Of a stretch of DNA of 32,000 nucleotides, positions 113-25,507 are shown piece by piece. The DNA lies in the NCBI GenBank assembly GCA_016205145.1, contig JACQJH010000002.1, positions 270,001-302,000 of the forward strand, given 5' to 3'. Position 1 is the stretch's first letter; every line of letters starts with the position of its first letter. This DNA is from Candidatus Iainarchaeum sp. (GTDB taxonomy: Archaea; Iainarchaeota; Iainarchaeia; Iainarchaeales; JACQJH01). Under the pieces are notes generated by a model, which worked only from the letters and a program-made list of their open reading frames with translations, was not told where the DNA came from and did not search any database. Both the position numbers and the translations under genes were made by a program.

Positions 113-1300
113 CTACGCCGGCCGGGCGGGGATTGACTCAAGTTCGCGCGCATACCTGCGGAGAAGCTTTTTCCGGTCAAAATGCGCTTCAGCAAAAGCC
201 CTTCCTTTCCTGCCGAGCCGTTCCCTGCGCCGCGCGTCTTTTTTGATGCGTATTACGGCATCAGCAAACCCGCGCGCGGTTTCCGCAACAACGATTCCGG
301 AACTCCTCTTCAAAATTCCGGAAAGCGCCCCGGAATTCGAGACAACCGGCTTTCCGCAGGCAAGGTATTCAAGGCACTTGTTAGGAATGAAACTCAGGCC
401 GGAAACCTTTTCAATCATTGAATTCACGCAGACATCGGCCTGCATCAGAAGCTCCGGAAGGGCGGCTTTGGGGATGACCGGCAGGAAGAGCACGTTGCCT
501 AGACGATTGGTTTTTGCAAAAGCCTTCAGGCCGGCTTTTCCGCTGCCGTCGCCCACAAGCACGAAAAGCAGTTCCTTATCATGGCGCAAAAGGACCGCGG
601 CTTCAAGCACGCGCTGAAGACCGTAAAACCGGCCCATGGGTCCCGCATACATCACGACAAACTTTTTCCAGCGCCGCTTTGCGGGCTTTTTGCCTGCAAA
701 CAAATCCAGGCTGACGCCGTTCGGAATCACAAGCACTTTTCCCGACCCGATTCCGGTTTTCAGGATTTCTTTCCTGAATTCATTGGTGACGCAGACAATC
801 CTGTCAGCAGACCTGTACAAAAGCCGCTCAATAAAGTTCCCAAGCCGCGCTAACAAGCCATTGCGCAGGGCGCCCATCAAGACAGGCACAAGCGGCCACA
901 GGTCCCTGACCTCTAAAACAAACCTGGCGCGCCTAGCCTTGGCAATGGCCAGGCCCGCAAGCCCGGACTGCAATGGCGGGGAACTCGCCAGGACAACATC
1001 AATCCGGGGGATTTTAAAGGAGGCAAAAAACGCGCCCAGCATGAAAGACTGCTGCGCCAAAAGCCTTCCGAAAAAGCCAGCGTGATGCGAACCTAGAACA
1101 TTGCAATAAATGACCTGAAGGTTCCTGCGCAGGACAACTTTTGTCACGCCGCGCTTTTTGTCGGTCATATAGTTCCTGTTTCCGGCCAGCACCCAGACAG
1201 TGTGACCGGCTTCCGCAAGAAAAACCGCCAAATCAAATGGCTTCGACGAACCCGGCTCGCCGGGAAGCGTGAAATGCTTGTGAATAATCAGAATATTCAA
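113..1300 (-). CDS. Glycosyltransferase family 4 (WbuB-like, GT-B fold)
   Basis: Track ORF 113..1339 (-). From the TTG at 1300 the product reads (M)NILIIHKHFTLPGEPGSSKPFDLAVFLAEAGHTVWVLAGNRNY, a typical N-terminus for WbuB-type GT4 enzymes. The C-terminal half has the GT-B sugar-nucleotide region (IPNKCLEYLACGKPVV). No in-frame ATG lies near the N-terminus. A TATA-like box (minus-strand CTATTAAATA, 1323-1332) sits ~27 nt upstream of the TTG at 1300, which favours that start. Other TTG/GTG candidates run up to 1339. Confidence 0.85.
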   Translation of the reverse strand: MNILIIHKHFTLPGEPGSSKPFDLAVFLAEAGHTVWVLAGNRNYMTDKKRGVTKVVLRRNLQVIYCNVLGSHHAGFFGRLLAQQSFMLGAFFASFKIPRIDVVLASSPPLQSGLAGLAIAKARRARFVLEVRDLWPLVPVLMGALRNGLLARLGNFIERLLYRSADRIVCVTNEFRKEILKTGIGSGKVLVIPNGVSLDLFAGKKPAKRRWKKFVVMYAGPMGRFYGLQRVLEAAVLLRHDKELLFVLVGDGSGKAGLKAFAKTNRLGNVLFLPVIPKAALPELLMQADVCVNSMIEKVSGLSFIPNKCLEYLACGKPVVSNSGALSGILKRSSGIVVAETARGFADAVIRIKKDARRRERLGRKGRAFAEAHFDRKKLLRRYARELESIPARPA

Positions 1301-1365
1301 AAAAACCACCAAATAAGGCAATGTATTTAATAGCAACAATCTAAAAAATTATTAGGATTGACTCA
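1301..1365. promoter_or_regulatory. AT-rich divergent promoter region between two glycosyltransferase genes
   Basis: This 65-nt AT-rich spacer holds two TATA-like boxes. TATTTAATAG (1323-1332) faces the minus-strand gene. AAAAATTATTA (1344-1354) faces the plus-strand gene and lies ~26 nt before the second ATG at 1375. Confidence 0.4.
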
Positions 1366-2550
1366 ATGACCCGTATGCATATTACCTGTTTGAATGGCTT
1401 TTTGATGGGAAAAGAAAGCGGCGGAGCAAAAAGAATCAATTATATTACACGGAATCTTTCAAGGCATTTTACCGTGACCAGAATGGACTTTGCCAGCACC
1501 ATAAAACTGGTGAAGCCAGCGGAGGAAACAATCTTGAACAAAAGCCTCACAAGATATGGCTTGCCACAAAGTCCAATTCTTAACGGGAGCCTGAAGGCAA
1601 TTGGCGTGCCGTATGGCGTGAGACAGCATTATTGCTCTGGCGGATGGTCGTTGCCTTCGAAGGTCATGGAAAAGGCAGGCAGCCCAGACATTATACAGGT
1701 TGAATTCCCGTACCTGTTCGAATTCGCGGCAAAAAAATTCCCCGGCAAAAAAATTGTGCTTTCCGAGCATAACGTGGAACTTGACATGCAGCCCATCATC
1801 GCAAAAGAGCACAAGATTAGAAAATTTTTTTATGCAAAAATTGAGGAAATAGAAAGAAATGCCGTTCAAAGTTCCGACGCAATTGTCACGGTTTCTGCGG
1901 AAGACGGACGAAGGATTTGCAGGCATTACAGCATAAAAAAAGGCAAAATAATCGTTTGCCCGAACGGCGCCGATACAAGGGAAATCGTGCCGGCTACAGC
2001 GGAACAAAAAAATGATGCAAAAAAAGCAATCGGAATAGGCCCGGAAAAAAAAGTGATACTATTCTGCGGCTCAAAATATGCCCCGAACAACGAGGCTGTG
2101 CGGGTCATCGAGCAAATTTCAAAGTCCGCGCCAAGGGAATACGTCTTTCTGATTGTCGGGCAAAGCGGGCTGCATAAAGGGCGGGAAAACAAAATTGTCA
2201 GGACTGGCTATGTCCCAGACATCAAGCCGTATTTTCAGGCGGCGGACCTTGCAATAAACCCAGTTTTGGATGGCGGGGGCTCAAACGTAAAGATGTTCGA
2301 ATACATGGCCGCCGGTCTGCCGATAGTTTCTACACCCGTCGGGAGACGTGGCATAGAAGCCAAAAACGGAAAGCATTTGGTCCTGTCGGAAGAAAAATAT
2401 TTTGCAGAAAATATCGAACTAATTGCATCTGACGAAAACCTGTGCGACAAAATAGGCAAAAATGCCAGAAGGCTTGCTGAACAGAAATATGACTGGGAAA
2501 AAACAACCTATCCGCTTGTAAAAAAATACAGGCAAATGCTGAAAAAATAG
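1366..2550 (+). CDS. Glycosyltransferase family 4 (GT-B fold)
   Basis: 394-aa ORF. The C-terminal Rossmann half carries NPVLDGGGSNVKMFEYMAAGLPIVSTPVGRRG, the GT4 E-x7-E type donor site. ATG at 1366; the ATG at 1375 (MHITCLNGF...) is an equally plausible start given the TATA spacing. Confidence 0.85.
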   Translation: MTRMHITCLNGFLMGKESGGAKRINYITRNLSRHFTVTRMDFASTIKLVKPAEETILNKSLTRYGLPQSPILNGSLKAIGVPYGVRQHYCSGGWSLPSKVMEKAGSPDIIQVEFPYLFEFAAKKFPGKKIVLSEHNVELDMQPIIAKEHKIRKFFYAKIEEIERNAVQSSDAIVTVSAEDGRRICRHYSIKKGKIIVCPNGADTREIVPATAEQKNDAKKAIGIGPEKKVILFCGSKYAPNNEAVRVIEQISKSAPREYVFLIVGQSGLHKGRENKIVRTGYVPDIKPYFQAADLAINPVLDGGGSNVKMFEYMAAGLPIVSTPVGRRGIEAKNGKHLVLSEEKYFAENIELIASDENLCDKIGKNARRLAEQKYDWEKTTYPLVKKYRQMLKK

Positions 2551-2563
2551 CAGAAGGCAGAAA

Positions 2564-3484
2564 ATGGGAAATGAGATAGCCAACCTGGAAAAAAGCGGCC
2601 GTGGGGCGTTCGTAACGGCAGTCATCCTACTTTACAACAGCCGAAACCATGTAATGAATTGTATTGAATCTTTCAGAAACCTGGATTACAAAAACTTTCA
2701 AATAATTGTTGTTGATAATTACTCTGTTGACGGAAGCCTTGACGTTGTCAGACAAAAATACCCGTCAATAAGGACAATAAAAAACGAAAAAAACCTTGGC
2801 TATGCTGCCGGAAATAACATCGGCATAATGGAGGCTCTCAAAGACAAAAAAACAAAATATGTTTACATTACCAACCCGGACATTTTACAGGAAAGGGGCA
2901 CACTTGGAAAACTCGTTAGAAGAGCCGAACAAGAAAAAGACTGCGGCATCATCGGACCAGTCATATACGAAAGCGCTTCCGGCGGGGTGGAATTTGCCGG
3001 CGCCACAATCGACAATGCGACTGGAAAAATAACTTTTTTACATCAAAAACCGAAAAAGGCGCTTGAAAGCCTTTACGCGATGGGCTGCGCAATGCTTGTA
3101 AACAGGAAAGTGTTTGAAAAAATAGGCTTGTTTGATCCCGACTATTTCTGCTACTGGGAAGAAACGGATTTTTGCATGCGTGCAAAAAAAGCAGGATTCA
3201 GAGTGTTGGTGACACCTGAAACCACAATAATCCACAAAGGCATTGAAGAGAAAGAAAAGGATTTATGGCACAATCTGGAAAAAAACTATTTTTTGTCAAA
3301 AAACTATTTTCGTTTTGTCAAAAATAATATTGAAAAACGCAGGCACAAGGAATTTATACTGGCTTTTTTAACCACGACATTTCTGAAAAAAATTAAAGCC
3401 GGGGCATTAAAAGCTGACTTTGCTACAATTTTAGGGACGCTTGCAGGAACCACTAAAGGGGCGATAGAATTCTGCCTACATTAA
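2564..3484 (+). CDS. Glycosyltransferase family 2 (GT-A fold, rhamnosyltransferase-like)
   Basis: The N-terminus VTAVILLYNSRNHVMNCIESFRNLDYKNFQIIVVDNYSVDGS is the classic GT2 start. It is followed by ITNPD and GCAMLVNRKVFEKIGLFDPDYFCYWEETDFCMRAKKAGF. The start lies 13 nt after the upstream stop. Confidence 0.9.
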   Translation: MGNEIANLEKSGRGAFVTAVILLYNSRNHVMNCIESFRNLDYKNFQIIVVDNYSVDGSLDVVRQKYPSIRTIKNEKNLGYAAGNNIGIMEALKDKKTKYVYITNPDILQERGTLGKLVRRAEQEKDCGIIGPVIYESASGGVEFAGATIDNATGKITFLHQKPKKALESLYAMGCAMLVNRKVFEKIGLFDPDYFCYWEETDFCMRAKKAGFRVLVTPETTIIHKGIEEKEKDLWHNLEKNYFLSKNYFRFVKNNIEKRRHKEFILAFLTTTFLKKIKAGALKADFATILGTLAGTTKGAIEFCLH

Positions 3485-3500
3485 GTTCAATGTGGGTTGC

Positions 3501-4733
3501 ATGACTATCCCCTTAAAAAAAAAACGGAAACTGACTGCGATGACCAGAAATCACCTGATCCTCTCGAACACGCTTCCGGAAAGGCACCCGTACGCGCTCC
3601 TGCTTTACTCCGGACTCAGGAAACACGGATTTGAAGTGCAAAGCCCGCAGAACAGGGCGGGCGTGCGCCTTTGCGCGGAGATTGCGGCAATTTTCCCTAA
3701 AACCCGCATCGTGCATTTGCACTGGATAGAGCACGTTTTCAGCGGCGGGCCCGGAAAATTCCCCGCCATGGCCGGGATTGTCATGGCATCGGCGTTCCTG
3801 TGCTTTCTTGCGCTCGCAAAGTTTCTCGGCAAAAAAATCGTCATAACAATCCACAACGTCGAACCGCACAGGACGCTTTTTCCGCGGCTGGAAAAAGAAG
3901 TGTTCGGCCTCGCCATAAGGATTGCCGACGCGGTGATAGTGCACAATGCCTGGAGCAAAAGGAAGGCAGTTGCTGTTTACCGGCTGAACGGGCGCCAGGC
4001 GGGAAAAATCAGCGTGATACCGCACGGTAATTTCATCGGATACTACAAAAATTCCGCGGGCAGGAAAAAGGCGAGGGCATCGCTTCAAATCCCGCAAAAC
4101 TGTTTTGTGCTCCTGGTTTTCGGCGAAATGCGCGAACAGAAGGGCATTGCCGTGTTCCTGAAGGCGGCCGGGAACGCCATAAAAAAGGACAAGGGCATTT
4201 TTGTGGTGTTTGCCGGCAGGTGCCTCGAGGACAGAGTGAAAGAATCCATTTTGTCGTTTGCGGAAAAGTTTAAGGGAAACTGCATTGCAAGGCTTGAATT
4301 CATTCCAGATGCGGAAGTGCGGGCGTTCATCAACGCGGCCGACGCCGGAGTGCTGCCATACGAGAGGGTTTCAACGTCTGGCGCGCTGATACTGTTCATG
4401 TCCTGCAACAAGGCGGTAATCGCGCCAAAACTCGGGCCGGTGACGGAACTGCTCGGCGCATATCCGCTTCTTTTCAAGCCGAAAAACGCGAAAAGCCTTG
4501 AGAGGGCAATCTTCAAATCTAAAAAATTGCGTCTGGAAAAAATCGGGGAAGGCCTCCGCGCAAAATCCAAACGGCTCGGATGGAAAACAATTTCCGGGTC
4601 GACGGCCAGATTATTCGAAAAAATCCTGGACAGAAGGCGGGGCGGGCAGAAACCGGGCCGGCGGAAAAGCCGGCGGCCGGCTGGAAAACCAAAAACAATG
4701 CTTAAAGCCAGAACGGCCAAGAGCATAACCTAA
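3501..4733 (+). CDS. Glycosyltransferase (GT-B, GT4/GT1-like) with basic C-terminal tail
   Basis: Track ORF 3492..4733. Motifs include GKKIVITIHNVEPH and VLPYERVSTSGALILFMSCNKAVIAPKLGP (GT-B donor-binding half). Start is ambiguous: GTG 3492, ATG 3501 or ATG 3540 (MTRNHLILSN). The last ~35 aa are Arg/Lys/Pro-rich (RRRGGQKPGRRKSRRPAGKPK). Confidence 0.8.
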   Translation: MTIPLKKKRKLTAMTRNHLILSNTLPERHPYALLLYSGLRKHGFEVQSPQNRAGVRLCAEIAAIFPKTRIVHLHWIEHVFSGGPGKFPAMAGIVMASAFLCFLALAKFLGKKIVITIHNVEPHRTLFPRLEKEVFGLAIRIADAVIVHNAWSKRKAVAVYRLNGRQAGKISVIPHGNFIGYYKNSAGRKKARASLQIPQNCFVLLVFGEMREQKGIAVFLKAAGNAIKKDKGIFVVFAGRCLEDRVKESILSFAEKFKGNCIARLEFIPDAEVRAFINAADAGVLPYERVSTSGALILFMSCNKAVIAPKLGPVTELLGAYPLLFKPKNAKSLERAIFKSKKLRLEKIGEGLRAKSKRLGWKTISGSTARLFEKILDRRRGGQKPGRRKSRRPAGKPKTMLKARTAKSIT

Positions 4734-4742
4734 GGTGGCGCA

Positions 4743-5924
4743 ATGGAAAAAACCAGAATCTGCATTTTCGACGCGGTTCACAAGGCGAACGACTCGAGAA
4801 TTTTTTACCGGGAGGCAAGGAGCCTCGCAAAAAGGTTTGCCACCAGCATGATAGCCCAAAGCGACTGCCAGAATCCGGAAAGCCGGGAAATAAAATTTGT
4901 GTTCATAAAACCGCAGAAAAACCGCCTTTTGAGGGTGCTGTTCACGGACTTTGAAATTTTCAGGAAAGCGCTCGGGCAGAACGCCGACATATACCACTTC
5001 CACTGCCCGGAAATGCTCGGCTATGCCGTGATGCTCAGGCTACTCGGAAAAAAGGTCATTTACGACGTCCACGAAAACTATACGCAGTTCATTCTCTACA
5101 AGCACTACCTACCAAGGCCGGCAAGGAAGCCCCTGGCGTTCCTGTTCCGGCATTTTGAGGACTTTTGCTGCGGTTTCTTTGACACCATCATTTTGTCAGA
5201 CGGGGTTTACCTGAAGCGGTTTGAAAAATTCGCGGACAAATGCGTTTTGATAAAAAATTATGACGTGCCGGAAGACCTGGGCGCTTTTGCCGGAAAGCGC
5301 AGGGGCAAAAAAACTTTCGGAATCATTTATGCCGGAAGCGTGCAGGGGATTCGCGGCATGCAAAACATGCTCAACGCATTCGCCGAGGCCTCCGCACGCA
5401 TTCCGCAGGCGAGGCTTTCAATAGTCGGCTCGCCCGAATCCGAGGAATACGCGCGGTGGCTCAGGGGATACGCCGAAAGCCTCGGCATCGGCGCAAAAAC
5501 CGGGTTTTTGTGCGATGGGTTTGTCGACCACCGCGAAATAGAGGCGCATTACAATGCCGCCGACATCGGGCTTGCATTGTATCCGCGCATAAGGATACAC
5601 CGCCACAAATTCGTGACCAAATTCTTCGAATGCATGAAGCACGGCGTTCCGATAATCGCAAGCGACTTTCCGGAGTGGAAAAGCTTTCTGAAAAAATACG
5701 GCTGCGGGACCACCGCCGACCCCAAAAAACCCGCCGAAGTGGCCGAAAAGATCGTTTGGCTCGCTAAAAATCCCGCCGCAAGGAAAGCGATGTCGGAGGC
5801 CGGAAAAAAGGCGTTCAGGGAAAAATTCAACTGGTCGTCGGAGGAAAAAAAGCTCTTTGAATTGTATGAAAAACTGGTTGAATCCACCCGCAATAAAAGC
5901 GCCGTGGGAGATGCTTCCAGATGA
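4743..5924 (+). CDS. Glycosyltransferase family 4 (GT-B fold)
   Basis: 393-aa ORF. Motifs: IYHFHCPEMLGYAVMLRLLGKKVIYDVHENY (N-domain) and TKFFECMKHGVPIIASDFPEWKSFLKKYGCG (E-x7-E-like donor site). The start lies 9 nt after the upstream stop. Confidence 0.85.
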   Translation: MEKTRICIFDAVHKANDSRIFYREARSLAKRFATSMIAQSDCQNPESREIKFVFIKPQKNRLLRVLFTDFEIFRKALGQNADIYHFHCPEMLGYAVMLRLLGKKVIYDVHENYTQFILYKHYLPRPARKPLAFLFRHFEDFCCGFFDTIILSDGVYLKRFEKFADKCVLIKNYDVPEDLGAFAGKRRGKKTFGIIYAGSVQGIRGMQNMLNAFAEASARIPQARLSIVGSPESEEYARWLRGYAESLGIGAKTGFLCDGFVDHREIEAHYNAADIGLALYPRIRIHRHKFVTKFFECMKHGVPIIASDFPEWKSFLKKYGCGTTADPKKPAEVAEKIVWLAKNPAARKAMSEAGKKAFREKFNWSSEEKKLFELYEKLVESTRNKSAVGDASR

Positions 5925-6865
5925 GCGCCGCAAAAAACCGGCCGGATTTTGTCGTAATCGGCGCGCAAAAGGCGGGCACGTCGTTTGTGGCCAGGTGCCT
6001 TGCCGGGCATCCGCGGATTTTCATGCCTGAAACTGAGATTCCTTTTTTCAGGAACGAAAACGCGCCGGTGAAGGACGCGGAAGATTTCAATGCCCTGTTT
6101 GCCGGACTCGATGGCGGGACCATTGCCGGCGTAAAGGACCCGCTGTATTTGGCCACTGCGGGCTGCGCCGAAAAAATTGCGGAGAACAATCCCGGCACAA
6201 AAATCATTGCGGTTCTGCGCGACCCGCTTGACAGGATGCTGTCCGCATATTACATGAACATGTGCTGCAACCAGCTGCCGGTCGTGGAACCCGAAACAGG
6301 CATTGCAAGAATCCTTGAAAAGCGCGGCCGCGACAAAAGCGGACCGGAGCGCCGCCTCACGGAATGCGGCTTTTACCACCGGCATCTTTCAAGGTATTAC
6401 AGGAATTTTGACAGGGCACAGGTTATGGTCCTGCTTTACGACGACCTGAAAGCCAGCCCGCTTGCGGAAATCCGCAAAATCTACGGGTTTTTGGGAGCGG
6501 AAAAAAACTTCAAGCCAGGCTGCATCGGCAGAAGGGAAAACGCGGGCACGTATTCCCTGACAGCAATCCGGCTGTTCGCCCTGGCGCAGGCGGCCCTCTT
6601 TGTGCGGAACACGTCATTCGGCCTTGCGGATGGCGGCGTGTATTTGCATTGCCGCCCAAAAAACCGGTTTTGCGGGGCAATAGCCGGCGCCGGAAAAGGC
6701 ATTTACAGGGAACTGCTGCCCTGCATCGGAAAAAAACCGCGCTTAAGCCGCGGCCTGTCCGAAAAAATCAGGAAAATGTATGCGCCGGACATCCGCAGGC
6801 TTGAAAAAATACTCGGCAGAAACCTTTCCGGATGGAAAGCCAACGGCGGCGAAAACAACGGCTGA
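5921..6865 (+). CDS. PAPS-dependent sulfotransferase domain protein
   Basis: The 5'-phosphosulfate-binding loop is present (PDFVVIGAQKAGTSFV), as is the 3'-phosphate-binding motif (AVLRDPLDRMLSAYY). GFYHRHLSRYYRNFDRAQVMVLLYDDL is typical of the Sulfotransfer_1/3 families. The start ATG overlaps the upstream stop (ATGA at 5921-5924), indicating translational coupling to the preceding glycosyltransferase. Confidence 0.85.
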   Translation: MSAAKNRPDFVVIGAQKAGTSFVARCLAGHPRIFMPETEIPFFRNENAPVKDAEDFNALFAGLDGGTIAGVKDPLYLATAGCAEKIAENNPGTKIIAVLRDPLDRMLSAYYMNMCCNQLPVVEPETGIARILEKRGRDKSGPERRLTECGFYHRHLSRYYRNFDRAQVMVLLYDDLKASPLAEIRKIYGFLGAEKNFKPGCIGRRENAGTYSLTAIRLFALAQAALFVRNTSFGLADGGVYLHCRPKNRFCGAIAGAGKGIYRELLPCIGKKPRLSRGLSEKIRKMYAPDIRRLEKILGRNLSGWKANGGENNG

Positions 6866-6936: not shown

Positions 6937-8292
6937 TTATAACCGCCACGGCCAGAAAACAAGCATTCCCGCCGAAAGCCACAAAATCCTTTGCCCGGAA
7001 AAGTCAAAGCTGAACTGGGCCTCGACAAGCCCGATGGCAAAGGCTACAAAAAAAAGAATAAAAAAATCCCTTTCATGCCCGGCCGCCATCGGCTTCAGCC
7101 GCAGGAAAAACGAATAAATGGCCAAAACCAGGAACACTGCAAGCAACGCCAGGCCGGCTGCGCCCAGTTCGCTTGAAGCCTCAAGGAAAATGTTGTGAGG
7201 ATAAGGAACGGGCCTGTTTCCCAGGACAATAAGGGAATACTCCGGCAGCGTGGAACCGTACTCTTTGGAAAAAGCGCCCAGGCCCCATCCCAAAAGCGGC
7301 TTTTTCATTGTGAGGCCAATCGCGGCAGAATAAAGTGCGCCCCTGGCCGAAATGCCGCGGTCCTCGGACAGAAAATCAGGCGAAATGAAGACGAATGCCT
7401 GCGGGAAAAGAAAAAACGCCAGGACGCAGAACGCGGCGGCTAACGCGGAAAAAACCAGGAACGCCCTGCCGAACCTTTTTGCAAAAAACACCGCGAACAA
7501 AACCGAGCCCGCGAGCAGGCTCAATATCGGCCCGAGGGACTGGGAAAAAACCGCCAGCAGGAGAAAGAACGCGGCGCAGGCGCCGAAAAAAAGCCTCTTG
7601 GCCGGCGGGCCGGGCCGCATGGAATAAAAGGCGCTTATGAAAAAACCCAGGGCAAAAAAAATTCCAAGAAGGACTATGTTGCGGGCGAGGCCAAGGGTTG
7701 CCTCGCGGAAATCCACGAAAAACAGGAGCGAATAAACAAACAGGCCGGAGCCCATTCCGAGTATGCCGAAAAAGACCGCCTTGAAAAACCGGTCGAACTG
7801 CCCCGAACCAGTGCCCACGAACGCGGGAAACAGGAAAACCGGGACTGCCATGACCAAGAAACTCGAGAATTTTTCGGCTCCCTGCGCGGCATCCGACGAC
7901 CACATAAGAGACAGGCCCATTAATGCCGTGAAAAGCGCGAAAAAAATCGCTGGCGCGGAAAAAATTTTTGCGAAAAAATCGTTTTTCCTCACGGGCGACA
8001 ATGCCACGGCAAGCGCAAGCACCGGCAACACGACAAAAACGGGGTTTATTATGTGCTCGAAGTTTTCCGGAAAAAGCGCGAACATCGGCGACAGGAAAAA
8101 CACCGCGAACGCAATCCCCGGATTCCTTGCAAGGACGGGCAGGTTGACGAGGCAAAACAGCGCAAGCAAAAAAACCGTTTCGGGCAGGCGCACCACGCCG
8201 GAAACGAAAAAGACCGCGCACAAGCCCGCCAAAAAAAATTTCCACCACAAGCCGGAAACGCCCGGCTCCTGATGCGTGACTGCGGCGGGCAT
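6937..8292 (-). CDS. O-antigen ligase/polymerase-like (Wzy_C family) polytopic membrane protein
   Basis: Track ORF 6937..8367 (TTG). The ATG at 8292 (MPAAVTHQEPGV...) avoids overlap with the upstream gene and lies 28 nt downstream of a TATA-like box (minus-strand CTTTATATT, 8316-8324). The protein is very hydrophobic with more than 10 TM segments. It carries the Wzy_C loop motif PVPYPHNIFLEASSELGAAGLALL. Confidence 0.8.
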   Translation of the reverse strand: MPAAVTHQEPGVSGLWWKFFLAGLCAVFFVSGVVRLPETVFLLALFCLVNLPVLARNPGIAFAVFFLSPMFALFPENFEHIINPVFVVLPVLALAVALSPVRKNDFFAKIFSAPAIFFALFTALMGLSLMWSSDAAQGAEKFSSFLVMAVPVFLFPAFVGTGSGQFDRFFKAVFFGILGMGSGLFVYSLLFFVDFREATLGLARNIVLLGIFFALGFFISAFYSMRPGPPAKRLFFGACAAFFLLLAVFSQSLGPILSLLAGSVLFAVFFAKRFGRAFLVFSALAAAFCVLAFFLFPQAFVFISPDFLSEDRGISARGALYSAAIGLTMKKPLLGWGLGAFSKEYGSTLPEYSLIVLGNRPVPYPHNIFLEASSELGAAGLALLAVFLVLAIYSFFLRLKPMAAGHERDFFILFFVAFAIGLVEAQFSFDFSGQRILWLSAGMLVFWPWRL

Positions 8293-8332: not shown

Positions 8333-10411
8333 CTAACCGGCCTTTTCGATCGACATGTCGTCGACAAGAATCGTGCCCCGCCCTGAAAGGTTTGAAGACG
8401 TGATCACTGACGGCCTGACGCCCGCGATTTCCCCGCCCGTCCTGAAAACAAGGCGCCTTTCAAACCACCCGCCTCTTGGCGCGGAACCGTCAACAAACTG
8501 GTCCAAACCCGAAAAGGTTATGCCGAGGCATTCCGGCGGCTTTCCCGCGCATTCCTTGCGGCCGAAAAAAAACGCGGAAAGCCGGAACGTTCCTGAAAAA
8601 TCGCCGTTTTCTGGTACGAAAAAAAATGCGGAAAGCACATAATCCGAATCCGGTTCCAGGCTCACGGCATAAGCGTTGAAAGTCGAAAGGCCCGCCCAGC
8701 TTTTAGTCGGGCCTTCAACGCGCAGGCCCATCGAACGCTTTCCGGAGCGCGCGTTTTCGGACAAAAATATTTCCGAGTTGTTGAACGAGTCCCAGCCCTT
8801 GAAGCCGTCTTCAAAGCCAGGATTCACAAGCCCGCCCTTCAACTCATGCGAAATGCCGGATTCAAGCGCCTGCTGCGCCTCCAAAAGAAACGGCGCAAGG
8901 GAAAAGGCGGCGAAAACAACCGAAAAAGCCGAGGCCAGTGCAAGCAGATGTTTCCATGAAACCTGCTTTTCGGGGGAACCGCCGCCTGAAGCGCCAATCG
9001 ACATTCCCGCAAAAAGCCAGAACACAAAGGCGTTCCTAGCCGAAAACAAGGCGAATTCGAAAAAGCCGCCCGCAAAAAAAATCAGGGCGGAAAGGAAAAG
9101 CGCGGCGCAGGCGCCGGAACTTTCACGCCGCGACAAAAGCCGTTTGGCAAGCAGGAAAACAAGCGCGGCCTGGAAAAAAAGGAAAAACAATCCTGCGGGA
9201 ACCCCGCGCTCCAGCGCAAAATGCAGGAAAGAATTGTGCGCATTCTTCGGCCCCCCGAAGTCTTTTCCGGCCAGGCCGAAATAGGCCATTTCAAACGAGC
9301 CGAAGCCGTTGCCGAAAAAAGGCTCTTGAAGCGCGGCTCGGGCGCTGACCGAAAAAACCTGCGCACGGATTTCCGGACTGCGGTCCACAACCGAAAGCCT
9401 GTTGAAAAAGGAATACTCCGAAGGCGTGGCTTCCCCGGAATTGCCGAAAACCGTGCCGTACAATATTGCGACGGAAAACATCAGCAGGAGGCATGCGGCG
9501 GCCGACAAGCCCAAAGCCAGCGTGCGGCCCCGCGCCTGACGGGCCGTTGATGGCCAGTTATGCAGTTTCAAAAGCATTGCCGCCAGCACGCCAAGCAGGG
9601 CAAGAATCCAGGCGCCGCGCGAGTACGTGTAAAGCAGTGCAAGCAGCAGCGGCAGGCACGAAAAAAGGAAAAGCATTCTTTTCCAGCCATGCGAAAACAG
9701 TGCAAAAGAAAACGCGGAGGAAAAAAAAACCGCGAAGAACAGCCCCGCGGCATTCTCATAAAAAAACGGGAATTCAAGCCGGTAAAAGGAAGCCGGGCCC
9801 TGGAACCCCAAAAAAAGGCCCGCGCCGGGCGCCGAATGGAAATTGAAAAGGATTATTCCGGAAACCGCGAGAAAAACCGCCGCGGCAAGCATTGCAATGA
9901 AAGATTTCCGGGGCGAAACCGCGAACGTGAAAAACCCGCGTCCGATAAGGTAAAGCAAAATGAACTCGAACGAGAGGACCGCCAGCCTCAAGGGATAGGG
10001 TTCAAAGGCGTTTCCCGCAAAAACGCCGGCAACAAATGCCGCGCCTGAAAACAAAAAAAAGCCGCCCGCAAAAAAATCGGCAATGCCCGCCTTGAAGGCA
10101 AAGCCCTTTTCCGAAAAAAAGGCGCGCGACAGCGCGGAGGCCGCAAAGCCAAGCAGGGCGAACTCCGCCAAAAGGATGTTTTCGGCGGAAAATCCGTTCT
10201 GCAAAAAAGGCGACAGCGCGGCAAAAACCGCAAGGGCATAAAACGCCGGAACGGGCCGCAAAAGCGCGGCCGCGAAAAACACCGCAAACACCAGCAATGG
10301 AACCGCAAAATCCCCGGAAACCCATAACAGCGCCGCCGCGGAAACAAGCGAACAGAAAAACAGGACCGTGAAAAAAATCCTGAAAACCGTGGCACGCCCA
10401 GAAAGTTCCAT
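8333..10411 (-). CDS. Wzy_C/O-antigen-ligase-like membrane domain fused to a C-terminal CBM4_9-like carbohydrate-binding module
   Basis: Track ORF 8333..10414 (GTG); the ATG is the next codon at 10411. The N-terminal ~520 aa are polytopic, with the motif GPKNAHNSFLHFALERGVPAGLFF. The C-terminal ~165 aa read LVNPGFEDGFKGWDSF...SGKRSMGLRV...LEPDSDYVLSAFFFVPENG...GGWFERRLVFRTG...ILVDDMSIE, a CenC/CBM_4_9-like pattern. Confidence 0.8.
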   Translation of the reverse strand: MELSGRATVFRIFFTVLFFCSLVSAAALLWVSGDFAVPLLVFAVFFAAALLRPVPAFYALAVFAALSPFLQNGFSAENILLAEFALLGFAASALSRAFFSEKGFAFKAGIADFFAGGFFLFSGAAFVAGVFAGNAFEPYPLRLAVLSFEFILLYLIGRGFFTFAVSPRKSFIAMLAAAVFLAVSGIILFNFHSAPGAGLFLGFQGPASFYRLEFPFFYENAAGLFFAVFFSSAFSFALFSHGWKRMLFLFSCLPLLLALLYTYSRGAWILALLGVLAAMLLKLHNWPSTARQARGRTLALGLSAAACLLLMFSVAILYGTVFGNSGEATPSEYSFFNRLSVVDRSPEIRAQVFSVSARAALQEPFFGNGFGSFEMAYFGLAGKDFGGPKNAHNSFLHFALERGVPAGLFFLFFQAALVFLLAKRLLSRRESSGACAALFLSALIFFAGGFFEFALFSARNAFVFWLFAGMSIGASGGGSPEKQVSWKHLLALASAFSVVFAAFSLAPFLLEAQQALESGISHELKGGLVNPGFEDGFKGWDSFNNSEIFLSENARSGKRSMGLRVEGPTKSWAGLSTFNAYAVSLEPDSDYVLSAFFFVPENGDFSGTFRLSAFFFGRKECAGKPPECLGITFSGLDQFVDGSAPRGGWFERRLVFRTGGEIAGVRPSVITSSNLSGRGTILVDDMSIEKAG

Positions 10412-10432
10412 CACATTAAATCAGGCGAAATC

Positions 10433-10444
10433 GGTATATATACC
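10433..10444 (-). promoter_or_regulatory. Palindromic TATA box (GGTATATATACC) for the 8333..10411 gene
   Basis: Perfect 12-nt palindrome. Its centre is ~27 nt upstream of the ATG at 10411 on the minus strand, a spacing typical of archaeal leaderless transcripts. Confidence 0.5.
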
Positions 10445-10463
10445 TTTTTCCGCGTCCGGGGGC

Positions 10464-10519
10464 GTGTAAGTATTCTGGTTTCTGTGTAAGAAATAGCCCC
10501 TAACAAGGTTTACTTACAC
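10464..10519. promoter_or_regulatory. Three copies of heptamer GTGTAAG (two direct, one inverted); candidate transcription-factor site
   Basis: GTGTAAG occurs at 10464-10470 and 10484-10490, and its complement CTTACAC at 10513-10519. The outer copies extend to a 9-bp inverted repeat, GTGTAAGTA / TACTTACAC. The element lies between the stop of the 10574..11779 gene and the TATA box of the next gene. Confidence 0.4.
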
Positions 10520-10573
10520 AAAGCTTCCGCGGCCTGCCGGCCCGATGCGGAATGCCCGCAGGCGGCGGGAAAG

Positions 10574-11779
10574 TCAGGCCTTTTTCAAGCCGAGCCCGTC
10601 GACAAAAAATTCCCCGGACGAATCCGGTTCCACCGACGAAAAGAATGGGACAAAATTCGTGGCATCGGCATCCGTTGTGAACACGGCGGATTTTTCAAGC
10701 CATGCGCCCCTCTGGCTGTTGGCGTCAACGGACAAATCGGATTTGACAAGCGAATGCCTGTGGCACCCCTTGTCCCCGCCACAGCCATCCGGGCCCAGCA
10801 CGTGGAATGCCAGCTTGAAGTTTCCGGAAATATCCGCGCCTTCCGGGATGAATACCCTGCCTGAAAAAACATAGTTCGTGTCAGGCTCAACCGAAACCCT
10901 TGCAACGTTTGACATTGTAAGGCCGGAGTACAGCGGGTCGGCTCCGGTGACAACCACTTTCATTGAGTGCCTGCCCGAAAAAGCAGGGTTTTCCGCAACC
11001 AGAATCTTTCCGCCGCCGTTCACGGTCCAGGGAATTATGCCGTCCTCAAAATCCCGGTTCGGAATGTCAAAAAGCGTTTTTCCCGCAACACCAGCGAATT
11101 GCCTTGTCTCATCCCCAAGCAATTCAAGGTCCAGGCTGTCAACAAAAACGGGCCCAAACTGCCCTTTGCCCGGAGAAGTGACAAACGGAAAAACATGTTT
11201 TGCCTTAGAGCCTGTGCGGAACGTGACAAACCGTTCAACCCATTCGCCGCGGACGCCGCCGTCAACAGACGGGGCTGAATCAACCACTTCCGCATAGCAG
11301 GCCTGGCCTTCGCAGCCGTCCTCTCCCCTAACCTGAACTCCCATCCTCAAGCTGCCGCCGGTTTCCGCGCCATCCGGCACAAAAAAATGCGCCGAAAAAC
11401 GGTAAACCGTGTCCGGCTCCACGGCAAGCCGCACGCCGTAGCCGAAAACCGCGCCGGAATAAGCCTTTGAACCCGGCTTGACCAGGACCTTGAGCGAATT
11501 TTTTCCCGAAAACGCGCGCTCCGATGACAGGGAAACCGCCGCATCCATTTGCGCAACCCATGGAACCGCGCCAAGCTCAAAATCCGGGTTGGGCAATTCA
11601 AGGACGTCCATGCCGGAAATCCTTGCCGAAAGGGCGCGCTCGGCACGCAAGCCTTCGGTCTGCACGAAAAAGGCGGCAAGCCAGCCGATTGCGATTCCCA
11701 GAACCATCACGGTTCCGAAAACCGCCGCTGCCGGCCACAAGCCCTTTGCAGTCGAATCCTCCGCCATCATGAATGCCAT
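10574..11779 (-). CDS. Membrane-anchored protein with two tandem CBM4_9-like carbohydrate-binding modules
   Basis: ATG at 11779, ~25 nt downstream of a TATA-like AATAATTTAATTA on the minus strand. There is one N-terminal TM segment (GLWPAAAVFGTVMVLGIAIGWLAAFFV). Two ~165-aa repeats follow: LPNPDFELGAVPW...SGKNSLKVLV...VEPDTVYRFSAHFFVPDG...GEWVERFVTFRTG and IPNRDFEDGIIPW...SGRHSMKVVV...VEPDTNYVFSGRVFIPEG...GAWLEKSAVFTT. Both are paralogous to the C-terminal module of the neighbouring gene. Confidence 0.8.
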   Translation of the reverse strand: MAFMMAEDSTAKGLWPAAAVFGTVMVLGIAIGWLAAFFVQTEGLRAERALSARISGMDVLELPNPDFELGAVPWVAQMDAAVSLSSERAFSGKNSLKVLVKPGSKAYSGAVFGYGVRLAVEPDTVYRFSAHFFVPDGAETGGSLRMGVQVRGEDGCEGQACYAEVVDSAPSVDGGVRGEWVERFVTFRTGSKAKHVFPFVTSPGKGQFGPVFVDSLDLELLGDETRQFAGVAGKTLFDIPNRDFEDGIIPWTVNGGGKILVAENPAFSGRHSMKVVVTGADPLYSGLTMSNVARVSVEPDTNYVFSGRVFIPEGADISGNFKLAFHVLGPDGCGGDKGCHRHSLVKSDLSVDANSQRGAWLEKSAVFTTDADATNFVPFFSSVEPDSSGEFFVDGLGLKKA

Positions 11780-11804
11780 AACTATTTACAACCCGCTAAT
11801 TAAA

Positions 11805-11925
11805 TTATTTGCCTAGAGGGAAAGCGGCGGCATCCGCGCGCAAAATCCCGAAAACCTTTGCCACAACAGCCGACCGCACGCTTTTGAACAAAAACGATTC
11901 AAGCTGGGAGCGGTTGCAATGTCCA
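11805..11925 (-). pseudogene. Orphan 3'-end fragment of a kinase gene (paralogous to the 3' end of 12815..13387)
   Basis: Minus-strand reading gives ...RNGHCNRSQLESFLFKSVRSAVVAKVFGILRADAAAFPLGK* (stop at 11805-11807). The intact kinase ends ...RKPHNRSQLESFLFKSSKSAVVKRISETIC*. There is no start codon, and an in-frame stop sits just upstream (complement of TCA at 11951-11953). Confidence 0.65.
11862..11921 (+). repeat. Left copy of an imperfect ~60-bp direct repeat
   Basis: The core GCTTTTGAACAAAAACGATTC (21 nt) is identical to the copy at 12860-12880. The flanks are similar: CCACAACAGCCGA vs TCACAACCGCCGA, and AAGCTGGGAGCGGTTG vs CAGTTGCGAGCGGTTG. Confidence 0.8.
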
Positions 11926-12081: not shown

Positions 12082-12825
12082 ATGAAAAAAGCCCCAACTA
12101 TCGGCAAATTATTTTCCAGCATAGATTTGCGCGTGCACGGTGTTTTCGAATCCCTCAGCAACGAGATTGTTAAACCGTCCGTGCTGGCAGTTTTAGGCCT
12201 CAAAAGGCACGAACGATGGCAGTTGAAGCCGGAAAAATATTTGGCAGACGATTACCTGTCGGAAATACCGTCAAATTCGGTTACCAGAACCGCATTGTAT
12301 GCCGCAATAAACAGGACAGCCGGCAGAAAAGTTCTTGATATTGGCTGCGGCCCGGGCATATTTTTTGACGGATTCAGAAAAAATTGCAAAACAAAAACCT
12401 ACATCGGGATAGACATTACCCCTAAGATGGTCAAAATAGCAAAAAAAAGGTTTCCTGAAGCGGATTTCAGGAAAGGCGATATAACAAAACTAGATTTCAA
12501 GGACGCGGAATATTCAATCTGCATCATAAGCCATGTATTAGAGCACCTGGCACCGGAAACCTGCAAAAAAGCGATAAGGGAATCGGTCAGAGTGGCAAAA
12601 AGAAAGGTGATAATCGAGTTCTTCATCCCGCCAAGAGAGAAGGAAACCACAAGGCAGTTAGACTACTTTTACTACAACCAATACGATGGCAAAGAACTCA
12701 AAAAATTCATCAGAAGCCTCAATTGCAAAATCAAAATCACCAAAATAATCGACAAGGAACAACCAATAATAAAAAACAGGCACTACGAAATCTGGGAAAT
12801 AGAAAAAAAAATAGTCAGCAAATAG
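12082..12825 (+). CDS. Class I SAM-dependent methyltransferase
   Basis: Motif I is VLDIGCGPGIFF. Post-I/II region: YIGIDITPKMVKIAKKRFPEADFRKGDITKLDF. Motif III-like: YSICIISHVLEHL. The gene is visibly AT-rich (17 G+C in the 60 nt at 12721-12780). A TATA-like AATAAAATATTA lies ~30 nt upstream of the ATG. Confidence 0.85.
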   Translation: MKKAPTIGKLFSSIDLRVHGVFESLSNEIVKPSVLAVLGLKRHERWQLKPEKYLADDYLSEIPSNSVTRTALYAAINRTAGRKVLDIGCGPGIFFDGFRKNCKTKTYIGIDITPKMVKIAKKRFPEADFRKGDITKLDFKDAEYSICIISHVLEHLAPETCKKAIRESVRVAKRKVIIEFFIPPREKETTRQLDYFYYNQYDGKELKKFIRSLNCKIKITKIIDKEQPIIKNRHYEIWEIEKKIVSK

Positions 12826-16791: not shown

Positions 16792-16909
16792 ACTTTTTCC
16801 GCATGAAAAAAATCCGAAAACCGCATCAAAACTAATTTAAATGCGGGGCCACTTATTTCATTCAACAGGAACCGGTTTCTTCCGATTTTTTTGCTGGAAG
16901 TGGAAAAGC

Positions 16910-17647
16910 ATGCAGCACGCGCAGGCAATCATCAAGGCCGAGAACGTTTCAAAGGTCTACGACATGGGCCGCCAGGTGCAGGTTGCCGCGTTGAAGAAAA
17001 TAAACCTTGAAATCGGAAAAGGCGAATTCGTTTCAATCATCGGCCAAAGCGGCTCGGGCAAGACGACACTGCTTGACATCCTGAGCGCATTGCTCCGACC
17101 GACGCATGGCGAGGTTTACATCAACGGGAAGCCAATTTCAAAAATGAGCGATTCCGAGCTGGCCGTGGTGAGGGGCAAAACCATCGGATTCATTTTCCAG
17201 AGCTTCAACCTCATTTCAAGGATGTCGGCGCTGGAAAACGTCATGCTGCCATTGTGGTTCCAGGGCGTTCCGGCGCAGGGGCGAAAGGAGATTGCCACAA
17301 AAATCCTGCAGGACGTGGGCTTGGGCGACAGGATGGACCACAAGCCCAACGAGCTTTCCGGCGGGCAGAAGCAGAGGGTTGCCATTGCACGCGCGCTTGC
17401 AGTCGACCCGGACATAATCGTGGCGGACGAGCCGACCGGCAACCTTGACTCCAAATCCGGCGCGACAATACTCCAACTCATCGAAAACCTCAACCGTGAC
17501 AGGGGCAAAACCATTTTGATTGTTACGCATGAAAGATATGTTGCCGAAAGGGCGCAAAAAATAATAAACATCAAAGACGGTGAAATTATAAGCACCGAAA
17601 TCAATGATTCAGAGAATTCCAGATCCGTTAGGAGGGACTACAAGTGA
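16910..17647 (+). CDS. ABC transporter ATP-binding protein (MacB/LolD-type)
   Basis: Walker [13 protein letters not shown]-loop FIFQSFNL, signature [15 protein letters not shown], Walker [14 protein letters not shown] and H-loop VTHE are all present. The track ORF begins at 16841, but the conserved N-terminus ([17 protein letters not shown]) starts at the ATG at 16910. Confidence 0.9.
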
Positions 17648-18882
17648 ACAAAAAATTCGGTTTTGCGGCATTCATGGCATTTTTGGTCCTGTTCTGCCTG
17701 CCGGCCTTTGCAGCCAACCTTGAGGTTTCATCCGTAAGCTACAACCCATCGCCCGCCATTCCTGGGCAAAGCCTCAACCTGTTTGTGAACGTCACAAACA
17801 AGTCAACCTCCACCGCGGGCGTGGCGTTCTTCAACCTGAAGCTCAAATCCGACCAGTCCGAAACCACGTTCCCGTTCACCCTCGACCCGACCGACACTAC
17901 AAGGCGCGACCTCGGCGACATTCCTCCGGGAAAAACCGCGCTCGTGAAATTCAAGATCCTGCTCGACCCGTCGGCAACAGACGGCACCTTTGACATATTC
18001 TTCGAGCTTGGCAGCGAGGGAAAAACCGAGAAGATAACGCCGTACAGCATTTCCGTGCTCAGCAGGAAACCCATAATAAAAATCGTTTCAGCCTCGCCTG
18101 ACTCCGCGGAAATCGGGAAATCGTCAACGCTTGAGATTGTCGTCAGGAACATCGGCAGCAGCCGCGCCATAAACCTTTCAGTCGGCCTTGACGAGGAAAG
18201 GACCGTAACTTCCACCGGCGTTGTCGTTGAAAGGAACGTCGTGCCCCTGGGCGCCGGCTCGGTTTACATTCCCCAGCTGAACGCGAACGAAAGCGCTCCG
18301 GTTTCACTGCCGTTCATAATCAATCCGGGCGCGCAGGCCAACGCATATTACATTCCGATCAACGTGGAATTCTTCGACGAAAACAAGTCCAAGTATTCGG
18401 AAAAGGAATACGTGGGCATCAAGGCTTCAAACGAGCCGGAAATAGGGGCGACGCTCTCGGAATCAGAGCCCCTGCCTGTGCCGGGCGGAAAAACAAAACT
18501 GAGCCTTGAACTCTACAACGTCGGCATTGGTTCCGCGCAATTCCTCACTGTCAGGGTCGACTCTAATGACATGTTCCTTTCACAGAAGGAATTCTTCATC
18601 GGAACCCTTGAATCGGACGACTTCGACTCGGTCGCAATTGACACCATCGTGAACAAGGACTCTGCCACTGGCGAAAAGGATCTTCTGCTGACGTTCTCGT
18701 ACAAGAACGGTTTCGGGGAAGAAGTGTCGGTGGAAAAAAAGGTTCCGTTCAAGATTTATTCTGCTGCGGAAATAGCCGCGCAGAACCCCGCACAGACGCC
18801 ATGGCTTTTGTACATGGGCATAATCGTTGCTGCCGGCATTGCCTACTGGTGGTTCAAAAAGCGCGGGAAGAAAGCGCTGTAA
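17644..18882 (+). CDS. Secreted CARDB/S-layer-domain-like (COG1361-like) surface protein with C-terminal TM anchor
   Basis: The GTG start overlaps the ABC stop (GTGA at 17644-17647). Signal peptide: [23 protein letters not shown]. There are repeated beta-rich modules of the CARDB type (LEVSSVSYNPSPAIPGQSLNLFVNVTNKSTSTAG; IVSASPDSAEIGKSSTLEIVVRNIGSSRA; LELYNVGIGSAQ). C-terminal anchor: WLLYMGIIVAAGIAYWWFKKRGKK. Confidence 0.75.
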   Translation: MNKKFGFAAFMAFLVLFCLPAFAANLEVSSVSYNPSPAIPGQSLNLFVNVTNKSTSTAGVAFFNLKLKSDQSETTFPFTLDPTDTTRRDLGDIPPGKTALVKFKILLDPSATDGTFDIFFELGSEGKTEKITPYSISVLSRKPIIKIVSASPDSAEIGKSSTLEIVVRNIGSSRAINLSVGLDEERTVTSTGVVVERNVVPLGAGSVYIPQLNANESAPVSLPFIINPGAQANAYYIPINVEFFDENKSKYSEKEYVGIKASNEPEIGATLSESEPLPVPGGKTKLSLELYNVGIGSAQFLTVRVDSNDMFLSQKEFFIGTLESDDFDSVAIDTIVNKDSATGEKDLLLTFSYKNGFGEEVSVEKKVPFKIYSAAEIAAQNPAQTPWLLYMGIIVAAGIAYWWFKKRGKKAL

Positions 18883-25435: not shown

Positions 25436-25507
25436 GGGCGCGTAGCTCAGCGGTAGAGCATTGGTCTTATACACCAACGGTCGGCGGTCCGAATCCGCCC
25501 GTGCCCA
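25436..25507 (+). tRNA. tRNA-Ile, anticodon UAU (reads AUA)
   Basis: Cloverleaf folded by hand. Acceptor: GGGCGCG / CGTGCCC (one G-U pair), discriminator A. D arm: GCTC-AGCGGTA-GAGC. Anticodon stem: TTGGT / ACCAA, with loop C-T-TAT-A-C. Variable loop: CGGTC. T arm: GGCGG-TCCGAAT-CCGCC. There is no intron and no encoded CCA. Confidence 0.9.

Follow-up and report, generated by a model that had tools for sequence, protein, structure and literature searches.

How a long hydrophilic glycan is held by Wzy-type polymerases and ligases during work on its lipid-linked end, and how its length is set without a Wzz partner, are general questions that are raised by a locus of the archaeon Candidatus Iainarchaeum sp. 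The window analysed here is a stretch of 32,000 nucleotides (nt) from contig JACQJH010000002.1 (assembly GCA_016205145.1, positions 270,001 to 302,000 of the forward strand), and coordinates are those of the window unless a flanking contig is named. The subject of this study is a pair of neighbouring genes on its − strand: gene A codes for a polytopic Wzy_C membrane protein that ends in a carbohydrate-binding module (CBM), and gene B, immediately upstream, codes for a membrane-anchored protein with two further copies of the same module. Both open reading frames (ORFs), which a preliminary description had reported from the sequence alone, are present (Table 1). By analogy with the mycobacterial arabinosyltransferase EmbC, the lectin of A may hold the pathway's own glycan in cis, with B binding the same glycan at the membrane; we give this interpretation about an even chance of being correct.

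The protein of gene A is deposited at NCBI as MBI4053298.1, labelled 'O-antigen ligase family protein' (692 residues), and that of gene B as MBI4053299.1, labelled 'hypothetical protein'. Gene A starts with ATG, and an alternative GTG lying 3 nt upstream at 10414 would give a product of 693 residues. The public records of both genes belong to a Candidatus Diapherotrites (DPANN) metagenome-assembled genome (MAG) with a 637-kb contig, and the window contains archaeal markers such as a thermosome subunit, deoxyhypusine synthase and a RIO-type kinase, among others. Genes B, A and C, the last of which is a second Wzy_C paralog, all lie on the − strand. The gap between B and A is 160 nt, and C starts 40 nt past the stop codon of A, with which it is probably co-transcribed.

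The fusion in gene A is not an assembly artefact, since the same ORF was recovered base for base in an independent Logan contig (0 mismatches in 7508 nt). Recent horizontal transfer was also excluded as its source by the even G+C content at third codon positions (GC3), which was 0.63 in either half of A, 0.63 in B and 0.66 in C, near that of the housekeeping genes (0.65-0.68).

Wzy_C core and lectin modules

The membrane part of A had been assigned to Wzy_C from its loop motif, and Pfam confirmed the assignment: Wzy_C (PF04932) matched A with an E-value of 3.3e-15 and 56.6 bits (cut-off 31.7), and the motif NAHNSFLHFALERGVPAG at residues 391-408 falls within the match. The paralogs scored 61.5 bits (gene C) and 73.5 bits (a third copy in the left flank). 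In the numbering of the 693-residue form, the matched region of A contains R266 (YSRGA, the SRG motif), R350 (PEIRAQ, in the loop), GNGFGSF at residues 368-374 and H393 (the NAHN motif). In the literature, R215, R288 and H338 of Escherichia coli WaaL, corresponding to R224, R298 and H349 of PglL, were reported to be conserved and functionally important (Schulz et al., PMC3643930), and alignment to the structures 7TPG and 9RMK revealed equivalents of all three Arg/Arg/His residues in A. When a profile of the three Wzy_C cores from the cluster was searched against the PDB, 9RMK ('Oligosaccharyltransferase', E 1.4e-4) and 7TPG (WaaL, E 4.6e-4) were found, with alignments covering the RGA motif, the loop Arg, GxGxG and the His of AHN. 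These data point to A as a member of the Wzy_C (WaaL/PglL/Wzy) superfamily with credible activity.

The kind of activity is a separate matter. The NCBIfam scan of A returned nothing more specific than Wzy_C and no equivalog. Polymerase-specific profiles (O-ag_pol_Wzy, PF14296; TIGR04370-type) did not match A in Pfam or NCBIfam, but polymerases are very diverse, and A may be one nonetheless. Among solved structures, the core comes nearest to a ligase (WaaL) and to one deposited as 'Oligosaccharyltransferase', and 'polymerase' should therefore not be the default reading of A; its sequence would be compatible with a polymerase, a ligase or an O-oligosaccharyltransferase (O-OTase).

The three copies of the module (the C-terminal module of A, and B1 and B2 in gene B) are homologous. 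Their alignment showed 33-37% identity with 37 invariant columns, and the pairwise BLASTP E-values were 1.7e-20 (A-B1), 1.6e-26 (A-B2) and 2.8e-35 (B1-B2). A hidden Markov model (HMM) of the module, run over the window and the 10 kb beyond its left end (Logan contig L027, in which position 10001 equals window position 1366), detected exactly three copies. Seven sequence motifs had been described as common to all of them. When searched as regular expressions, four of these were exact in every copy, and three were slightly off: B2 has VFIPEG in place of F-[FI]-[VI]-P, the Cys pair of A is C-x6-C rather than C-x3-5-C, and A has LVDDM in place of [FV]-V-D.

The assignment of the modules to the CenC/CBM_4_9 type, which had been made from their N-terminal signature and strand pattern, was upheld. 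Pfam CBM_4_9 (PF02018, cut-off 25.9) matched the whole of B in two stretches with an E-value of 8.2e-13 and 49.3 bits; among the single modules, B2 scored 30.8 bits, over the cut-off, and B1 24.4 bits, slightly under it. The module of A is assigned to the same type because it is homologous to B1 and B2 and because its predicted fold matches. An AlphaFold2 (AF2) model built from the three-sequence alignment was all-β, with a predicted local distance difference test score (pLDDT) of 73.5 and a predicted template modelling score (pTM) of 0.75. The top matches of this model in a Foldseek search of the PDB were 2WYS/2W5F (CBM22), 2Y64/1K42 (CBM4-2), 2ZEX (CBM16) and 3P6B (CBM4), with E-values of ~2e-7 to 1e-6, probability 1.0 and template modelling scores of 0.55-0.63. 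Sequence searches of the PDB with module profiles also matched CBM22 and CBM16. Thus the jelly-roll/CBM assignment holds for the three copies, directly for B and, for A, through its modelled fold and its homology to B.

Two aromatic positions of the modules deserve mention. The invariant Trp of NPxFExGxxxW aligned to Trp20 of the CBM16 structure 2ZEW, and the aromatic W/Y in SKSW/KAY/PLY-[SA]-G aligned to Trp53 of the CBM22 structure 1DYO; in those two CBM families, both positions contact the ligand. The conserved Trp residues of the module of A are W541 and W650 (W540 and W649 when the 692-residue NCBI form is numbered). With regard to glycosylation, N-x-S/T sequons numbered two in the module of A and zero in the 401 residues of B; archaeal surface proteins as large as B seldom lack them.

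Topology, origin and rarity of the fusion

The hydropathy profile of A showed ~12-15 hydrophobic segments up to residue 511, followed by a hydrophilic tail of ~170 residues, and hydropathy together with AF2 secondary structure gave about 15 helices. A full-length AF2 model, for which window sequences were used as input and paralog C was excluded (MAFFT had placed the C-terminal half of C onto the module), reached a pLDDT of 51 and a pTM of 0.32; its membrane part is unusable, and the helix positions alone were taken. After the catalytic loop, A has four helices (residues ~406-427, 432-454, 458-474 and 486-517, from hydropathy and AF2), whereas paralog C has only three and then its C-terminus; a W-L-x-A-G-M motif is common to the third of these helices in A and the last helix of C. 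The K/R-rich loops of A (KRLLSRRESS and PEKQVSWKH) lie on the predicted cytoplasmic side, and the stretch past the fourth helix is acidic. The large loop at residues ~320-404 is probably extracytoplasmic, as is the homologous loop in WaaL and PglL, which is periplasmic (PMC3643930, PMC2932511). Based on the helix count relative to C, the positive-inside pattern and this loop, the extra helix is predicted to return the chain to the outside, which supports the earlier proposal that the module of A is extracytoplasmic.

Gene B was described before as one transmembrane anchor followed by two modules, and its profile agreed, with one hydrophobic segment and then B1 and B2. The tethers between membrane and module are ~18 residues in A and ~16-23 in B. 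An N-in/C-out orientation, which would set the modules of B outside, is suggested mainly by the nature of the domains and their Cys pair.

From this layout, A can be read as a 12-helix-type Wzy_C core that would end in the cytoplasm, extended by a B-like unit of transmembrane helix, short linker and module. Since 'transmembrane helix + ~20-residue linker + module' is also the N-terminal architecture of B, the most likely origin of A is that a B-like gene became fused to a canonical Wzy_C gene.

The proposal that A and B have separate promoters is plausible. A BRE/TATA-like element, AAAAAGGTATATATACC, lies ~27 nt before the ATG of A, inside the 160-nt gap between the genes, and a TATA-like element, AAATAATTTAATTA, lies ~25 nt before the ATG of B. 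Both were read by eye, and their positions, which are the basis of the prediction, would fit TATA boxes of leaderless archaeal transcripts. A scan for sigma-70 promoters and terminators found nothing beyond the shuffled background, and being a bacterial model it has no bearing on an archaeon.

The rarity of the fusion was evaluated with a profile of the three modules, which was scored against 1.84 billion cluster representatives of proteins. In total, 366 proteins matched at E<=1e-3; A and B alone were below 1e-30, and the next best match was at 1e-26. Among the best 150 of these 366 relatives, a hydropathy screen found A to be the only polytopic protein, the others having a signal or anchor at the N-terminus and, in some cases, an anchor at the C-terminus as well. 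The nearest relatives form two groups: bacterial multi-CBM surface proteins and glycoside hydrolases, and small archaeal proteins (P0006, P0008 and P0052) that combine Pilin_N with one module of the same subfamily, including the loop Cys pair. The latter are candidate lectin-tipped pilins or adhesins. Genome and metagenome scans with the module alignment yielded 24 weak loci with the N-terminal motif only, none of them on a polytopic protein. Whether full-length A, the module alignment or the Wzy_C core served as query, word-indexed searches gave A itself or no match, a result that is weaker than absence because the query is divergent. The estimate rests on relatives of the module, the C-terminal domains of all Wzy_C proteins not having been enumerated. 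No description of a Wzy_C-CBM fusion was found in the literature either, and the earlier statement that no characterised Wzy-CBM fusion is known still stands. One MAG is the only known source of this rare architecture.

Glycan cluster around genes A, B and C

Table 1. Positions of the genes, domains and signals described in the text (window coordinates, or positions in Logan contig L027 where so marked).
Feature	Position	Strand	Basis
Gene A, Wzy_C membrane protein with C-terminal CBM_4_9-like module, 692 residues	8333..10411	−	ORF, Pfam
Gene B, single-pass anchored protein with two CBM_4_9 modules, 401 residues	10574..11779	−	ORF, Pfam
Gene C, second Wzy_C paralog, 451 residues as called in public assemblies	6937..8292	−	ORF, Pfam
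Module copy 1 (A, residues ~525-693), CBM4/9/16/22-like β-jelly-roll (predicted)	8336..8842	−	alignment, AF2, Foldseek, HMM
Module copy 2 (B1, residues 56-222)	11114..11614	−	alignment, BLASTP, HMM
Module copy 3 (B2, residues 232-401)	10577..11086	−	alignment, BLASTP, HMM
Wzy_C (PF04932) match, residues 252-412 of A	9179..9661	−	Pfam
Large hydrophilic loop of A, residues ~320-404, bearing the conserved Arg, GxGxG and His	9203..9457	−	hydropathy, homology
Extra transmembrane helix of A, residues ~488-511, past the canonical last core helix	8882..8953	−	hydropathy; AF2 helix 486-517
Signal-anchor helix of B, residues ~14-39	11663..11740	−	hydropathy
BRE/TATA-like element upstream of A	10433..10449	−	read by eye, position only
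TATA-like element upstream of B	11797..11810	−	read by eye, position only
Five glycosyltransferase genes (GT4 x4, GT2) and sulfotransferase	113..6865	.	Pfam
Sulfotransferase gene	5921..6865	.	Pfam
Bac_transf priming phosphoglycosyltransferase, E 1e-61	L027:8096-8707	−	Pfam
Third Wzy_C paralog (468 residues), then DUF4330 protein	L027:4048-6903		Pfam

Genes A, B and C lie within a large bacterial-style glycan-assembly cluster, as judged from its gene content, in an archaeon. In addition to the glycosyltransferase and sulfotransferase genes of Table 1, the window has a methyltransferase gene to the right of B, and the left flank adds the Bac_transf primer, another GT4, an AsnB-type amidotransferase and the third Wzy_C paralog. 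The total amounts to the Bac_transf primer, ~8 glycosyltransferases, a sulfotransferase, a methyltransferase, an AsnB-like enzyme and three Wzy_C paralogs. The third Wzy_C paralog stands directly before a single-pass protein of 479 residues with three DUF4330 stretches, so that the arrangement of A and B has a counterpart in the cluster, where another Wzy_C gene stands beside that of an anchored extracytoplasmic protein.

Gene C has the canonical Wzy_C architecture and carries no module. It differs from A at one of the catalytic positions: where the WaaL/PglL triad begins with a conserved Arg, C has Leu (QSLGP, compared with YSRGA in A), and the loop Arg and the His are retained. Its activity may be different or reduced.

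The cluster is a mosaic with respect to GC3. One GT4, the GT2 and the methyltransferase (1366..3484 and 12082..12825) have values of 0.42-0.51, compared with 0.63-0.68 for A, B, C, the other glycosyltransferases, the sulfotransferase and the housekeeping genes. The pattern is suggestive of cassette exchange inside the glycan locus.

Two further features of the window are recorded here. At 17644..18882 (+), overlapping the end of an ABC ATPase gene (16841..17647), a 412-residue protein with CARDB and Ig-like domains is encoded; it is probably a surface protein and has no kinship to the module family. A tRNA-Ile gene with the anticodon TAT (UAU) lies at 25436..25507 (+), just before the gene of a class I aminoacyl-tRNA synthetase (25593..28472). 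In most archaea, AUA is read by a modified CAU tRNA, and a UAU tRNA-Ile is uncommon.

Proposed glycan capture and its alternatives

The proposed capture of the glycan can be set out in steps. A would transfer a lipid-linked glycan at the outside of the cytoplasmic membrane, the cluster product being, by its gene content, a decorated glycan that is presumably primed by the Bac_transf enzyme, sulfated and possibly methylated. The extra helix would set the jelly-roll outside on its ~18-residue tether, a few nm from the catalytic loop with R350 and H393. There, the module of A would most likely bind the glycan of the pathway, whether as acceptor, growing chain or finished product, and might thereby raise the local substrate concentration or the processivity. 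B would be the unfused, bivalent, tethered partner that binds the same glycan beside the membrane and holds or organises it. The short tethers of both proteins suggest a membrane-proximal ligand.

Several findings in the literature are relevant to this proposal. In EmbC, arabinan acceptors are bound by the C-terminal CBM, and lipoarabinomannan is no longer extended when Trp residues of this CBM are substituted (PMC3044687). As in A, a polytopic transferase of polyprenyl-linked sugars carries a C-terminal extracytoplasmic CBM in EmbC; however, EmbC is a bacterial GT-C enzyme of the Emb type with another CBM subfamily and without a separate tandem-CBM partner gene, whereas A is a Wzy_C protein. 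The principle of a transferase with an external lectin is therefore already known (PMC3044687), and what is new here is that an archaeal Wzy_C protein has acquired a CBM_4_9-type lectin and that a tandem paralog of the lectin, not fused to an enzyme, is encoded beside it. In euryarchaea, Makarova et al. 2015 (PMC5898192) reported operons in which two Wzy-like paralogs (arCOG03206) are accompanied by a secreted protein that binds sugar (arCOG03414). They resemble the present locus in being archaeal, in their paired Wzy-like paralogs and in an adjacent protein predicted to bind sugar, but they have pfam14296 and a TrmB-type domain with no fusion described, in contrast to the PF04932 and CBM_4_9 found here. 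For O-OTases of the Wzy_C family, PglS among them, periplasmic domains at the C-terminus have likewise been predicted (PMC9829042). Lastly, the modules share the NPxFExGxxxW signature, the jelly-roll and the conserved aromatic positions with members of CBM4/9/16/22 (1DYO, 2ZEX, 1K42), from which they differ in residing on a biosynthetic membrane enzyme and a membrane anchor rather than on a glycoside hydrolase, and in the loop Cys pair C-x4-6-C.

A number of observations weigh against glycan capture. The module of A, taken alone, has no direct match in Pfam, and its position relative to the active site is not given by the full-length model with its pLDDT of 51. The charges around the anchor of B are ambiguous, with K12 on the N side and E42, then R45/R48/R53, on the C side. 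With isoelectric points of 4.9-5.3, the modules are slightly acidic, and electrostatic attraction of a sulfated polymer is not supported by these values. A flippase of the Wzx type was not seen in the ~41 kb of window and flank. Neither for the fusion nor for the A-B pair did the searches find a relative, and a functional link is thus not backed by evolutionary conservation. In addition, the nearest small relatives of the module reside on archaeal pilin-like proteins, where they presumably bind foreign surfaces rather than a nascent glycan of the cell itself. An argument from opposite charges of module and sulfated glycan was also considered and set aside, the mildly acidic modules being uninformative in this respect.

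The pilin-borne relatives lead to adhesion or recognition as an alternative, in which B, on the surface of an episymbiotic DPANN cell, would bind glycans of the host or the environment, and the module of A would do likewise without catalytic meaning. The closest short relatives of the module are the Pilin_N + CBM_4_9 proteins P0006, P0008 and P0052, the remaining relatives are mostly large proteins that are secreted or sit on the cell surface, and for cultivated DPANN archaea a role in host recognition has been proposed for lectin-like proteins with an N-terminal transmembrane helix (bioRxiv 10.1101/2023.10.27.564410). However, the ~16-23-residue tethers would keep the modules at the membrane and under any S-layer, with poor reach to another cell; one module is covalently joined to a glycan transferase, and B stands in a glycan cluster directly upstream of two Wzy_C genes. 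B also lacks a Pilin_N signal: Pilin_N (PF07790) did not match residues 1-70 of B even at E<=10, whereas P0006, P0008 and P0052 do match. On balance, we regard adhesion as unlikely, though less so than the other alternatives. That B itself is an archaeal pilin was considered because its AKG|LWPAAAV resembles KRG|LSPLIAV of P0052 and was rejected on the Pilin_N result; the resemblance is a weak lead.

The preliminary description had suggested that the modules of A and B could form a device for product capture, chain length or surface retention and might stand in for a missing Wzz; for these functions our results gave no direct support. Wzy-Wzz systems such as WzyE-WzzE (PMC10030265) are similar to this locus in the broad superfamily, in the type of cluster (a primer, several glycosyltransferases and modification enzymes) and in having a neighbour that is anchored in the membrane and largely external; here, by contrast, PF14296 and PF02706 gave no match and no flippase was seen nearby. 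B consists of one transmembrane segment and β-jelly-rolls, not of two transmembrane segments flanking a coiled-coil, helical oligomeric barrel, and it has no Wzz match, so that none of the defining features of Wzz is present. The genome is archaeal and, to our knowledge, archaea have no lipopolysaccharide and no Wzz has been reported in them; therefore, the absence of Wzz is uninformative and no anomaly.

A functional surrogate, in which the tethered CBM of A and the bivalent B measure, cap or retain the polymer in place of the co-polymerase, may still be asked about on other grounds. No Wzz or polysaccharide co-polymerase gene (PF02706) was found among the ORFs scanned in window and flank. 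Such a surrogate would fit one model of Wzz, in which the growing polymer is bound by Wzz, favouring processive catalysis (PMC10030265), and mutants in the EmbC CBM alter polymer extension (PMC3044687). Nevertheless, nothing marks A as a polymerase, its closest solved relatives being WaaL and an oligosaccharyltransferase, and the A-B pair is not conserved elsewhere. We consider the surrogate improbable. The same holds for a product-capture device working without co-polymerase, in which A and B would hold the nascent glycan and set its length or pass it to C; we think this improbable as well.

The possibility that A, C or both act as PglL/TfpO-like O-OTases with B as the adjacent target, the shared module serving homotypic recognition, seems to us quite improbable. 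A resembles WaaL (7TPG) and the Wzy_C O-OTases (PglL, PglS, TfpO and TfpM; 9RMK) in Wzy_C itself, the polytopic core, the large, predicted external loop and the Arg/Arg/His residues. It differs from them in its archaeal host, which has no lipid A-core acceptor, and in its C-terminal domain, a CBM_4_9-type jelly-roll attached via an extra transmembrane helix. The best PDB match of the core profile is 9RMK; WaaL, however, scores nearly as well. Bacterial pglL homologs adjoin pilin substrates in 21/31 cases (PMC3643930), and relatives of the module occur on archaeal pilins. On the other hand, neither A nor C gave a match to PglL_A (PF15864), PglL_B or another O-OTase-specific profile in Pfam (E<=1) or NCBIfam. 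As a substrate, B lacks a Ser/Thr/Pro-rich low-complexity stretch, a C-terminal Ser and the Pilin_N signal, and there is no sign here of homotypic CBM_4_9 pairing.

An incidental or decaying fusion, in which a Wzy_C gene recently lost its stop codon and ran on into a B-like gene behind it, the module having no selected function in A, is very improbable: the architecture is exactly that of a core plus a B-like unit and A is a singleton, but its module, 33-34% identical to B1 and B2, has kept all the hallmark residues, with both Trp and the pair of Cys among them, which indicates long purifying selection rather than recent decay, and the composition is even and the topology coherent across the junction.

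For glycan capture by A and B, the weight of the evidence is limited by its origin from one MAG without conserved relatives and by the fact that the principle of a transferase with a CBM was established by EmbC. Within these bounds, the fusion and its unfused bivalent paralog form a 'Rosetta stone' pair, which suggests that capture of the glycan at the membrane surface belongs to the mechanism. The modules, as small soluble domains, can be expressed and are easy to test.

The cluster also documents a bacterial-style glycan pathway, with a Bac_transf primer and several Wzy_C enzymes, in a DPANN archaeon. Surface glycans of DPANN archaea likely matter for symbiosis, the enzymes of archaeal non-N-linked glycosylation are largely unknown, and no characterised Wzy_C enzyme from Archaea was found in the literature. 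If the two proteins do form a product-capture device that works without a co-polymerase, the pair of A and B would represent a new route to the control of chain length or processivity in Wzy-type pathways and would provide an early functional handle on the archaeal Wzy_C enzymes.

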